A stretch of 64,000 bases of DNA from Octopus vulgaris (lineage: Eukaryota), in the NCBI GenBank assembly GCA_951406725.2, contig OX597830.1, positions 64,976,001-65,040,000 on the forward strand, in the 5' to 3' direction. Below, piece after piece: positions 3,925 through 49,044 of the stretch (positions are counted from its first letter, which is position 1; each line of letters opens with the position of its first letter). Made by a program: the position numbers and the translations under genes. The notes beneath the pieces are model-generated. The model was not told the origin of the DNA. It worked only from the letters and a program-made list of their open reading frames with translations, and did no database searches.

Positions 3925-4713
3925 AAAATAGTAAAGAGTGAAAAAACGACGTCAATATGTCTGAAGAATATTAGAAAACTTTTTTTTTTTAATTTTTTTC
4001 TCTTATAATGACAAAATTTTTTAAGAAAGACCGGTTTCGCATTTAGCTTTTCAAATTTCTTGTGACGTTATGTTTATTTGAATGGAGTTATTCTTGTGTT
4101 TATGCTCCGGAGAGTTCTAAATAAGGGAAGGTAGTGGGTAATTTCTTCCGGTGTAAGGGAGATAATCGCTTTAAAATTTTTTTCCTTTTCCCTTAATGTG
4201 AATTTCTCAGTATCAGTATGTTCGGATGGTTGAATCTGGGCTTGTACTTTTCAATGAAGAATGTTTCCTTGTTTAGTCTAATTTGTGTTGGTGATCCGAA
4301 AGCACATTGGTAAAATGGAAAGATTAAAAATTGTGGTAGCAGTTGCTTTGCGCATTTCTCAATGTGCTCACTAAAAGGTATCATTCTATATTCTGGGAAT
4401 GCAATCTGTTGTCGATGCAGTGTGCATCTACGTCTGAGTGATAGTCCCGTGGAACCCACGTAGTCTTGGTGGCAGCCCAAGCATTCTATGACATAAATTA
4501 TGTTTTCAGAGGCACAAGTAAAGTTAGATTTGATCTTGAATTTTGTCATTATAAGAGAAAAAAATTTTTTTTTTTTGTAAATTTTCTAATATTCTTCAGA
4601 CATATTGACGCAAATATATATATTTTTTAACATTTAAGCCTTCTGTCGTTTTTTCACTCTTTACTATTTTCTATATATTCACCCACGTGCTTTCACAAAC
4701 CAACTTTCTTATC
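3925..4713 (-). mobile_element. 5'-truncated Penelope-like element (GIY-YIG 3' end plus inverted terminal segment)
   Basis: ORF 4193-4549 has the GIY-YIG signature NIIYVIECLGCHQDYVGST. 4545-4670 is an inverted copy of 3925-4018 followed by a tail. Inserted in (TA)n and close to the element at 9233-11035. Confidence 0.9.
4023..4061 (-). ncRNA. Minimal type I hammerhead ribozyme, U3-A8 core variant
   Basis: Minus strand reads AAGAAAT TTGAAAA GC-TAAAT-GC GAAA CCGG TC TTTCTT: stem I, core UUGAAAA, 2-bp stem II, palindromic stem III (ACCGGT), GUC site. Confidence 0.7.
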
Positions 4714-4751
4714 TATATATATATATATATATATATATATATATATATATA

Positions 4752-5098
4752 TAGGTTTAAATGACAGAAGAATCACTCTCAAGCTACTCAATCATCATTG
4801 AATGACATTATCCACAATAGGTACATATAGGACTAAATATTGAAATTATCAAAATTAATACTTACAATTCTTATTTCAAATCAAATACTTTACATTATAA
4901 GAAATGCAGGTATTAATTTTGATAATTCTAATATTTAGTCCTGTATGTACCTATTGTGGATAATGTCATTTAATGACGATTGAGTTGCTGGAGGGTGATT
5001 CTGTCTCTTAAACATATCTTATATATGTATATAAGACAGTGAGTAATTCAATTTAGTACCACCCATCTCCTCTGTGGAGTCGGAAATAAATTCCCTAA
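4752..5098. repeat. Imperfect fold-back inverted repeat with one-sided tail in a microsatellite (probable PLE terminus)
   Basis: About 110-bp arms at ~4752-4862 and ~4910-5022 (aatgacattatccacaataggtacat / atgtacctattgtggataatgtcatt), followed by a unique tail. Confidence 0.65.
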
Positions 5099-5355
5099 CA
5101 CACACACACACACACACACACACACACATATATATATATATATATATATATATACATATATATATATATACGTATATGCATACATATATTTATATGTGTA
5201 TATATATATACATACATATATATATATATATGTATAAACATATATATACATACATACATACATACATACATATATATATATATTATATATATATATATAT
5301 ATATATATATATATATATATATATATATATATATATATATATATATATATATCTA

Positions 5356-5879
5356 CAGGATCTTCAAGACGTCTCTCCGCAATAAGTATTTTATTGCAAA
5401 ATACATATTTATAAGATGGTATAAGACTACAAAAGAATATATTAGACTTTACAAGACTTTAAACATCTTTATAAGAAGTGTTGAAAGTGTCATCCTTCAT
5501 TTTCAATACATAAGTTGACTCTTCTTCACGTTTTAAAATACAACTTCGAGAGTCTGACGCGGTATGGACCATGTGAAGGTTACGATTGCGTCTCTTAGCT
5601 CATTAATGGTTTTCGGGCGATTCTTGTACACTGGTTCTTTACTTGCTCTCTGGAAAAAAAAATCTGGCGGTGTTAATCAGCTGATCTTGGTGGCCAAATT
5701 CCCTTCGAAATAATCCATTCAGCAAAAATCTCTTCAAAGAGCGGCATTGTGATGCTCGAAGTATGTACTTTAACTCCATCTTGCAGAAAGTGTGCATTAT
5801 TAATTTCACGTTCAGTGAGTTGGCAAACAAATGGCTAGACAATATTTGAGCAGTGCGGAAAGACTTTTTGAACACCTTG
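5356..5879 (-). mobile_element. Internally deleted Tc1/mariner-superfamily DNA transposon
   Basis: Degenerate TIRs (caggatcttcaagacgtctctccgca versus the reverse complement of tgcggaaagactttttgaacaccttg). Minus strand gives the frameshifted transposase motif WPPRSAD..TPPDFF...KEPVYKNRPKTINELRDAI. Confidence 0.75.
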
Positions 5880-46440: not shown

Positions 46441-47183
46441 AAGGAAACATCAAATTTAACAAAATTTCACAGTTCTTTGACGTCTAATCAGAAGACAAAG
46501 ATTCCCTTCATTCTTCTTCCCACGAAGAAAACTTGCAGAAAATATCTTTTTAAATGAGACTAAAACCAGAACTGAACCTCTCCAGGACGGGTAATCCTCC
46601 GGCAAATATAATTTCTTATTTTGCAGATGAATTATTGTAGATATTTCAATCGAAAATATTGCATAATAATTTCCGTGTACCTACTGAATATCATAGATTA
46701 TTATCCACGTAATTAAGTTTTTTATGACGCAAATGATGCCCGTACGATTAACAATATCATCCAGATGCTCATCAACACGAAACTTTCAAGAAAATATTCA
46801 GTCTTCTTGCATTTGGTTTAACTCAAACGAAACGAAACAAACGTCTACGAGACCATAACGTTACTGTATTCTAAGCGAAAACTCCTTTTACTGCTGTCAT
46901 CTCTGGCCACCCGTTACTGAGCTTTTGGTGTATCCATGTCAGGTCGTACCTTCTTGACCCTGTATAGACTTCTGTTGGATAATATAGGCACACGCACACA
47001 CACAAATACAGCGAATGTGTTGCAGCAGCTATAGTTTGTTGAATTGAATACCATACTCGTATAGTAAATATTTCCTGCAGACCAACGATAGAATAAAAGA
47101 AAATGTCCAAGTTAAGTGGCTCGATTTGAACTCTGTAAAGGCGTTACTGACTGTGGTCCTTTTCAGACTTCACAATAAATATC

Positions 47184-47567
47184 GGGGAAGCACTCCGTCG
47201 GTTACGACAACGAGTGTTCCGGTTGATCCGAATCAATGGAACAGCCTTCTTGTGAAATTAACGTGTAAGTGGCTGAGCACTCCACAGACACGTGTATTCT
47301 TAACGTAGTTATCGGGGATATTCAGCGTGACACAGAGAGTGACAAGGCCGGCCCCTTGAAATACAGGTACAACAGAAACAGGAAGTAAGAGTGAGAGAAA
47401 GTTGTGGTGAAAGAGGACAGCAGGGATCACCACCATCCCTGCCGGGGCCTCGTGGAGCTTTAGGTGTTTTCGCTCAATAAACACTCACAACGCCCGGTCT
47501 GGGAATCGAAACCGCGATCCTATGACCGCGAGTCCGCTGCCCTAACCACTGGGCCATTGCGCCTCCA
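47184..47567 (-). mobile_element. SINE family C, full length with 13-bp TSD
   Basis: CACAATAAATATC at 47171-47183 and 47568-47580. Confidence 0.95.
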
Positions 47568-48958
47568 CACAATAAATATCACAGTGAATTGTATTAGGTG
47601 TTTAGTAATAGTAACAGTTTCAAAGTTTGGCGCAAGGCCTGAATTTAGGGAGTTTAGTTGCATGATTATTTTCTTTTTTATGATATAAGCTTGCATGTTT
47701 TCGAAAAACTAGGAATGGTATTTAAGCAAAGTCCCAACATTATAAATCTTTGAGAGGACTGATAAAGTTCGTTGATTAGTTATCGTTAGTTGGATTCATG
47801 CAGCATTTTGCAAGAGGCATATCAATTCTATAAATGTTCCCTCGGCGCAACATAGCAAGCGAGTTTGCATATATTTTACTATACAAAATCTCAGACTGAG
47901 AGATACTGAAATGTAATAATTGATCAATATAGCACAAACCCGTTTCATTTAGATTCTGTAATATTCATAGAGAAAACGTTACCGAATATTTTCTAAGACG
48001 CTGCTCTTAATTGCCTCCTCTTCTTTTTTTATTGTCGCTGAATTCCGCCACCAGCAATGCATACATATCTGCCTCCCGGAATCTAATTGCACAAACTTTC
48101 ATATGTATGTGTACTTGCATATGTGCATGCATTTATGAACTCCACCTATATTTATTCACACATACACAATTACGCAGTCACACATCTACTTCATGTTTCT
48201 CACACGGACGTGATACCTGTGAATATTGAAAGGAAGCAGACATATTGCCGCCTTTAGTACAGTTAATACTTGTCTAGGTCAACGATAAAATGCTGGAAGC
48301 CATCATGAACTCAATATTGACATCAAATTAACAGAGACGGGGTGCAGGAGTAAGAAATTTCAATATTGTCGGGATTGCAGTATTTCAGAGTTTGAAAACT
48401 GCTGGGTTGCATACTGTATTGTACACATACACACAAATTATATCTATCACTCTCTTTCTATTCCCCCTCTTTCTATCTATCTATCTAGCTAGCTAGCTAG
48501 CTAGCTATCTACCAAAAAATCTCTCAACCTATTTCTCTCTTTCTCTCACCGTCTTACTCTTTCTCACACACCTACACACATACACACTCTCTCACCATGA
48601 ATACTTTCTATTTGTCTTCCTCTCGTAGGTACATTCACTTGTACAACATCTTATGCAGGCACGCCATGCTGTCTCACACACATAAAAGCATTTCCACTCA
48701 TAAAGAGGCATGTGCGCTTGTTGGCACAAACTTGTGTACGTGTGTCGGTATGTACATATTTGTGTGTGTATATAGATAGTGTATATAGATATCTGCCTAC
48801 ATACAAACATATATATATATATATATATATATATATATATATATATATATATATATATATATATATATATATATATATATATATATATATATATATATAT
48901 ATATATTTATATATGAATAAATAAATGGAGTTTAACGCAGGTGTAATCAAATATTATT

Positions 48959-49044
48959 ACTTTCGACACATGTTTCGAAAATTCCACTGATACTATTCAA
49001 AAGAATAAATGGCATAAACAATGCAATCTTCTCCTCAGGAAAGT
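48959..49044 (-). ncRNA. Type I hammerhead ribozyme, canonical core
   Basis: Minus strand ACTTTC CTGAGGA GAAGATT...AATTTTC GAAAC ATGT GTC GAAAGT: perfect 6-bp stem I and GUC site; in a short unique island between (TA)n tracts. Confidence 0.85.

Follow-up and report, generated by a model that had tools for sequence, protein, structure and literature searches.

Minimal type I hammerhead ribozymes occur in the terminal repeats of metazoan Penelope-like elements (PLEs), where they show a short palindromic stem III and are arranged as inverted pairs with a spacing of 100-700 bp (Cervera and De la Pena, 2014; PMC4209133). Motifs of the same layout, location and arrangement are described here from Octopus vulgaris, in a 64,000-nucleotide stretch of contig OX597830.1 (assembly GCA_951406725.2, positions 64,976,001 to 65,040,000, forward strand), hereafter the window, whose positions are counted from its first letter. 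The architecture is that of a type I hammerhead, the base pair between core positions 3 and 8 is fixed family-wide and is of the Watson-Crick type across families, and three of the four pair types are linked to open reading frames (ORFs) of the elements. We consider it rather probable that these are hammerheads which several retrotransposon families carry in their 3' ends, each with its own 3-8 pair, and which would cut slowly as dimers and probably with the help of a protein.

In the active hammerhead G8, the partner of C3, supplies the general acid by way of its 2'-OH; the change G8C costs 10^5-fold and is partly rescued by C3G (PMC6155905, PMC8495972). PLE hammerheads were reported to be poor cutters that act as multimers (PMC4209133). 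The U3-A8 pair is already published for Penelope elements: it occurs in Cercyon of Schistosoma mansoni (about 1,300 matches), and one U3.G8 stands in the alignment of the same work (PMC4209133). Both forms are also present in the octopus, and its G3-C8 family shares further features of the metazoan motifs, namely a bulged base after A9, G10.1-C11.1 and the palindrome. In contrast, G3-C8 and A3-U8 do not appear in the examined text parts and alignment rows of that work, and some octopus families differ from it by a 2-bp stem II, a stem II of at least 50 nt, or an extra base before position 3. The natural variants of Perreault et al. (2011; PMC3088659) show the same U3-A8 covariation, one-base insertion in the GAAA strand (U13a) and 2-bp stem II; section 8 of that paper names only U3-A8 at 3-8, and its variants are not thousand-copy retrotransposon families.

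The PAc hammerhead of Anolis Poseidon is likewise a PLE hammerhead with a tail and inverted copies; it needs the protein of the element, and the double change C3G/G8C partly restores its cleavage (PMC11167929). Its natural pair is C3-G8 and the motif overlaps the ORF start, whereas in the octopus G3-C8 is the natural state of a family and the proteins carry the CX2-5CxxC linker of Neptune/Nematis-type PLEs. The reverse transcriptase (RT), this linker, the GIY-YIG domain, an inverted truncated arm, a tail on one arm and insertion into (TA)n are common to the octopus elements and the endonuclease-bearing (EN+) Neptune/Nematis-type PLEs (PMC8557442), a likeness drawn from the linker motif and not from a tree with named references. 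Metazoan retrozymes, which are head-to-tail tandem units devoid of ORFs, do not match the U-A, A-U and G-C motifs, since these follow ORFs and lie mostly in inverted or single arms; the C3-G8 families could still be retrozymes. The finding extends a known system: neither the chemistry nor the host element is new, and partial function of the swap in vitro had been established before. No natural G3-C8 or A3-U8 hammerhead and no cephalopod survey was found in the literature searched, the coverage of which was incomplete, and novelty is thus provisional.

Hammerheads of the window

The window is microsatellite-rich, with 35% G+C, within a genome of 2.8 Gb; a repeat search returned microsatellites only. 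All nine core heptamers named by a first-pass annotation of this DNA are present at their positions. The hammerheads and the Penelope-like sequences around them are as follows.

4023..4061, minus strand: type I hammerhead, U3-A8, with an extra U before U3 (2a), a 2-bp stem II, ACCGGT and C17; member of a 722-copy subfamily
4193..4585, minus strand: 3' fragment of a Penelope-like ORF; GIY-YIG (PF01541) at E 0.003, below the Pfam cut-off
about 4539-4753, plus strand: inverted arm of the 4193..4585 Penelope-like copy
9369..9408, minus strand: type I hammerhead, U3-A8, with a 7-bp stem I, a 2-bp stem II, ACCGGT and A17
9545..10447, minus strand: Penelope-like RT/GIY-YIG ORF, C-terminal 300 amino acids; 98% identity to an 811-amino-acid open frame at locus L074
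10442..11035, plus strand: inverted, 5'-truncated arm of the same element as 9545..10447
10838..10877, plus strand: type I hammerhead, U3-A8, with U3 at 10845 and A8 at 10850; predicted cut after A17, at 10870
11031..11342, minus strand: 3' end of a second Penelope-like family, its protein about 58% identical to that of the U-A family
11282..11321, minus strand: irregular hammerhead, A3-U8; in the best register an extra G before A3, C at 13, AACCAATTGGTT and C17
28941..29021, minus strand: type I hammerhead, C3-G8, with a long stem II, ACAGCTGT and A17; inverted partner of 29221
29221..29301, plus strand: type I hammerhead, C3-G8, of the same family as 28941
30167..30260, minus strand: decayed C3-G8 hammerhead with U16.1 altered; the family form is intact, with ACATGTGT and A17
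42691..42897, plus strand: short G3-C8 Penelope-like copy, with an inverted arm at 42691-42741 and a sense arm from 42750
42763..42811, plus strand: decayed G3-C8 hammerhead, with G3 at 42770 and C8 at 42775
48959..49044, minus strand: type I hammerhead, C3-G8, with a long stem II, ACATGTGT (a palindrome with G.U) and C17; an abundant family

The cut at 10870 is inferred by way of the established hammerhead numbering. Behind the sense arm of the 42691..42897 copy lies a tail-like sequence, and the copy adjoins an (AAT)n run.

A descriptor for type I hammerheads that left N3, N7 and N8 free, and required a palindromic stem III and H17, was passed by five of the nine sites: 9369 (minus) and 10838 (plus), both U3-A8, and 28941 (minus), 29221 (plus) and 48959 (minus), all C3-G8. 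Thirty block-wise dinucleotide shuffles yielded three matches in total, or 0.1 per window. As single copies, 4023, 30167, 42765 and 11282 fail the descriptor; they are decayed or variant members of genome-wide families. The family forms with G-C, clean A-U, U-A and C-G all have three stems round the core with the open end at stem I, the palindromic stem III requiring a dimer, and contain U4, G5, A6, A9, G12, A13, A14, A15.1-U16.1 and H17. Two window copies depart from this core, 11282 by a C at 13 or an extra base, and 42765 by an altered A15.1 and a broken stem II. The C3-G8 identity (CUGAnGA) is absent from the U-A, A-U and G-C families, which keep the pair and not the identity of its bases. 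An Rfam scan of the window showed no hammerhead among the best 150 of 512 matches, which were dominated by matches of microsatellites to microRNA models, and the Rfam hammerhead models gave no match at gathering threshold in four family loci (L157, L258, L217 and L240).

The 3-8 pair across families

An unbiased sample of 100 stretches of 10 kb at round coordinates (1.0 Mb), searched at a score of at least 12 with positions 3 and 8 free, contained 19 matches, every one with a Watson-Crick 3-8 pair (13 C-G, 4 G-C and 2 U-A). Ten shuffles of this sample gave eight matches (0.8 per Mb), three of them Watson-Crick at 3-8, and four decoy cores gave none at a score of 13. The absence of A-U hammerheads from the sample compares with an expectation of about 0.3 from the 947 genome matches described below. 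Permutation of position 8 gave p 2e-5 among matches and about 0.002 among families, values that overstate independence because kin share labels; the by-family run counted nine C-G families, and a recount of eight left the order of magnitude the same. A search based on CUGAnGA would overlook six of the 19 intact motifs, as the first-pass annotation had anticipated. Extrapolated genome-wide, intact G3-C8 motifs would number about 11,000 (95% range 3,000-29,000).

A DNA search with the 42765 motif produced 2048 first-look candidates, 40 of which were scored, and 32 arms from 30 loci align to a complete G3-C8 hammerhead. The family form comprises a 7-bp stem I, GUGAACA, a bulged G after A9, a 5-bp stem II that opens with G10.1-C11.1, GAA, the palindrome AAUAUU and U17; its 51-nt form has 402 exact copies in the genome (control, 0). 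In the window copy, which is about 85% similar to its relatives, A15.1 has been lost and stem II is partly gone, and AAGATCTT, formerly put forward as the family palindrome in place of AATATT, is a product of this decay. A search with the 11282 motif likewise gave 831 first-look candidates. The A-U and G-C examples had been regarded as single, imperfect copies, and the window copies are indeed irregular or decayed; single they are not.

Most G3-C8 copies measure 150-300 bp; they have (TA)n flanks and an inverted arm, and one of the arms bears a tail. Sixty short copies had suggested a miniature inverted-repeat transposable element or a short interspersed nuclear element (SINE) lacking an ORF, which was ruled out by copies with an upstream untranslated region (UTR) and an ORF. 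An upstream 26-mer of the element occurs 730 times. Of 26 copies picked by it, not by the hammerhead, 24 have G-C, and following such copies upstream for 1 kb brings one to an ORF that contains YVDD, a CX3CX2C linker and GIY-YIG; in 13 loci or arms, about 1 kb separates the end of the GIY-YIG ORF from the motif behind it. A 524-amino-acid frame at L302 includes YVDD, the linker cysteines and GIY-YIG, and at L288 PF01541 scores 25.7 bits. The RT part has no Pfam match and matches the L074 RT at E 2e-9; no full-length copy was seen. The core and stems agree between two G-C subfamilies that are distinct in loop II and in their flanks, a weak comparison of few sites. Contigs of four runs from four organisms cover the G3-C8 motif, and no change above 5% is listed for position 3 or 8, a result that leans to close copies because matches needed 80% likeness. 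In the 2.0 Mb examined, no hammerhead belonging to another family of the G-C protein clade was seen.

Upstream of the G-C hammerhead (L277:1490-1520, L098, L186 and L107), a branch-point-like CTAAC and a pyrimidine tract are followed by a YAG that ends 21 nt before G3. Arms picked by the hammerhead end at this YAG (0 of 36 and 0 of 32 extend further; 2 of 9 in a random set), and several copies have, before the AG, a G that is absent from long copies. The site would represent either the end of an intron that is spliced out, of the kind known from Drosophila Penelope, or the start of transcription, the G then deriving from the cap; the element yielded no identifiable 5' splice site. The family form also shows, by eye, a frame of 22 codons that opens at the ATG following the AG, spans the hammerhead and ends shortly past stem I.

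The 11282-type motif follows a PLE ORF in its relatives. An alternative register of the window copy has one extra base after G12 and U17; comparison with sister families favours the register with C17 and the extra G ahead of A3, in which the copy is an A13C form. A clean A3-U8 family, found behind a GIY-YIG match at L219 (search over the cut-off), has 947 pattern matches in the genome, with U8 in 95 of the first 100; among 20 fetched loci, 18 are A3-U8, one U3-A8 and one A3-A8. Its stem I covaries across subfamilies (TATC/GATA, GTC/GAC, GCC/GGC), and it is present in the same four runs as G3-C8 with no listed change at 3 or 8. All four Watson-Crick forms thus exist in the genome at the level of families, the best evidence for A-U coming from outside the window.

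The 9369 and 10838 hammerheads are inverted arms of one element, the full frame of which has 811 amino acids with RT and GIY-YIG (at L074, RVT_1 at 30.9 bits and a weak GIY-YIG). A single ORF in which RT is joined by GIY-YIG at the C terminus lies upstream of the motif in both the U-A and the A-U families. The 4023 core stands 147 nt behind the end of the ORF fragment at 4193..4585 (minus), and its subfamily of 722 pattern matches, with one extra U before U3 and C17, rules out a broken copy. A further U3-A8 lineage has the palindrome ACAUGU. The inverted truncated arm, the tail on one arm and the microsatellite target are seen in G-C family copies and in the U-A copies of the window. Membership in PLEs, as first proposed, is supported for the U-A, A-U and G-C motifs by their link to RT/GIY-YIG ORFs. 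The 29221 and 48959 C3-G8 hammerheads have relatives; for the three C3-G8 families of the window, no RT/GIY-YIG ORF was found within 2.5 kb upstream with 11 query proteins, the flanks being short, and the one match among 59 stretches belonged to a neighbouring element.

In a tree of 29 endonuclease fragments the U-A and A-U families form one clade (97/98) without resolved inner order, and G-C is a long separate branch; the G-C protein has 27% identity to this clade over the best RT stretch. At least two transversion swaps would therefore be needed, and no order of events is claimed because the tree has no outgroup.

Other octopus lineages add to this picture. L249 has U3-A8 with a full stem I and C17, and both the 4023 type (one base lost) and the 9369 type (A17) could derive from it. 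A recently active PLE family (L203, L205, L207, L210, L213 and L224) combines many 781-amino-acid open frames with a U3-A8 hammerhead, preceded by a long 3' UTR in which TGACGTC and ATTGG motifs recur; we take these to resemble cyclic-AMP response element (CRE) and CCAAT boxes. L171 and L101 (four matches, overlapping loci) have a U3.G8 hammerhead with stem II and palindrome like a C3-G8 one, and this form is a possible wobble intermediate. PLEs of another branch (L202, L226) show, by eye, minimal motifs lacking stem III, with C3-G8 and apparently U3.G8. A rule that position 17 never pairs with 3 was rejected: it holds for G3/U17 (wobble only) and A3/C17 and fails in the U3/A17 families.

Cutting, dimers and competing explanations

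If the motifs act as hammerheads, the tertiary 3-8 contact would matter as a pair and the identity of its bases could drift, because G8 acts through its 2'-OH. Two copies would be held together by the palindromic stem III and by a stem I formed between the molecules, which would make the choice of partner a matter of both stem I and the palindrome; the cut would fall after H17. Slow, assisted cutting is to be expected, weakest for G-C, given the dimer-fold predictions below and the poor cutting of PLE hammerheads.

Several observations weigh against this reading. Both 3 and 8 are changed in six G3-C8 copies, none of which has become C-G, and the family is therefore fixed without inner covariation; a C3-G8 sister subfamily was looked for and not found, nor was any sister with covarying stems seen. 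Most G-C genomic copies retain the whole uncut motif. In the 4023 subfamily, G8 (a U.G wobble) occurs in seven of the first 100, and in another U3-A8 PLE family (L214, L220) G-C-A replaces GAA, with a weak stem I in both copies. The 44 strict matches of the 11282 family all have A3, with U8 in 36 and C8 in 8, and the C8 copies were amplified as a subfamily, because they share other diagnostic changes. The base after G12 in these matches is A in 22, U in 17, C in 4 and G in 1, so that position 13 is C or U in 21 of 44 and A13 is not fixed in this family. The canonical G-C dimer (-25.4 kcal/mol) is predicted to be less stable than two monomers (-27.6), whose predicted fold pairs G3 with U17, and the 9369-type dimer, otherwise predicted to resemble that of clean A-U, pairs U3 with A17. 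From the literature, a pairwise scan in a type III hammerhead reported rescue for the G-C swap alone and none for the U-A and A-U double changes (PMC9901934), and cleavage was reported as not required for insertion in vitro (PMC11167929). The proposal that families fix different 3-8 covariants is accordingly upheld by the family-wide pairs and by 19 of 19 paired matches, and weakened as a strict rule by the A3/C8, U3.G8 and C/U-13 subfamilies. Selection on the pair looks real but loose, since some lineages amplified with non-pairing or damaged cores.

Only some of the families may be active, with U3-A8 and clean A3-U8 cutting, G3-C8 and the irregular 11282 family dead or nearly so, and the panel partly made of relics. 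For clean A-U the fold of lowest predicted energy is the canonical dimer, in which stems I and III form between the molecules (-15.9 kcal/mol, the monomers having -7.8); this is not so for G-C. The 11282 family has few members and accepts C8 as well as altered bases at 13. Against this, G-C has the most complete stems among the variants, its U17 instead of C17 avoids a G3-C17 Watson-Crick trap similar in kind to those considered in PMC3884650, and its two subfamilies keep the same core and stems, albeit over few sites; we regard such partial activity as somewhat doubtful.

The variant motifs could also descend from hammerheads and no longer cut, their pair and stems being kept for another role, such as a protein-bound fold, or passively amplified as relics. 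The weak predicted G-C dimer, the amplified subfamilies with A3/C8 or A13 changes and the uncut genomic motifs would fit such a loss, as would the low activity reported in PMC4209133, which left other functions possible, and the lack of RNA-seq reads ending at the cut site reported in PMC11167929. A non-catalytic fold, however, would not need a paired 3-8 in combination with U4, G5, A6, A9, G12, A14, A15.1-U16.1 and a base other than G at 17, and transversion swaps (U-A to A-U, C-G to G-C) are unlikely to land on a pair without selection on the tertiary contact. General loss of cutting thus appears unlikely.

The suggestion that family-specific stem III palindromes confine dimer partners to the same family is improbable. 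Unlike palindromes do pair poorly (duplex energy of ACCGGT with itself -8.3, with ACATGT +1.0), but ACCGGT is common to the U3-A8 and A3-U8 families and the ACATGT type to the U3-A8 and C3-G8 families, with ACATGT, ACATGTGT and ACATATGT cross-pairing between the latter two (-5.3, -7.0). Being shared between families, palindromes alone cannot restrict partners. In the predicted U-A x A-U heterodimer stem III forms and stems I do not, which would leave the selection of partners to stem I. Chance matches in an A+T-rich, repeat-rich genome, a view that the 35% G+C of the window and the lack of Rfam gathering-score hammerheads in four family loci might invite, are refuted by shuffles and decoy cores (0-0.8 per Mb against 19 found in the 1.0 Mb sample) and by the position of the motifs behind PLE ORFs in many families, and deserve practically no credence.

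A bolder proposal is possible, which we hold tentatively: that active hammerheads by the thousand, with G3-C8 and A3-U8 as their natural pairs, would stand beside C3-G8, U3-A8 and U3.G8 in one animal genome, their elements having crossed a mismatch valley. G-C or A-U would be reached through a mismatched, near-dead intermediate, so that Penelope elements would need a way across: either they can do without cutting for some time, or, within the dimer, the cut is made in trans by a partner RNA. Genomic examples of such intermediates may be seen in the A/C and position-13 subfamilies. The families provide natural, evolutionary support for the tertiary 3-8 pair in all four Watson-Crick forms and, if active, would mean that the full pair set, so far built only by mutagenesis, occurs in nature. 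Hammerheads are undercounted by CUGAnGA-based searches, and matched families with paired, wobble and mismatched cores offer a test set for whether Penelope elements need hammerhead cutting.

Other sequences in the window

Three further matches lie elsewhere in the window. A weak zf-RVT match at 16059-17090 (plus strand) belongs to a non-long-terminal-repeat element, and a fragment of a Tc1/mariner transposase (PF01498, 55 bits) is located at 45992-46417 (minus strand). A tRNA match at 50732-50792 (plus strand), at 45.4 bits and above gathering threshold, may be the head of a tRNA-derived SINE.

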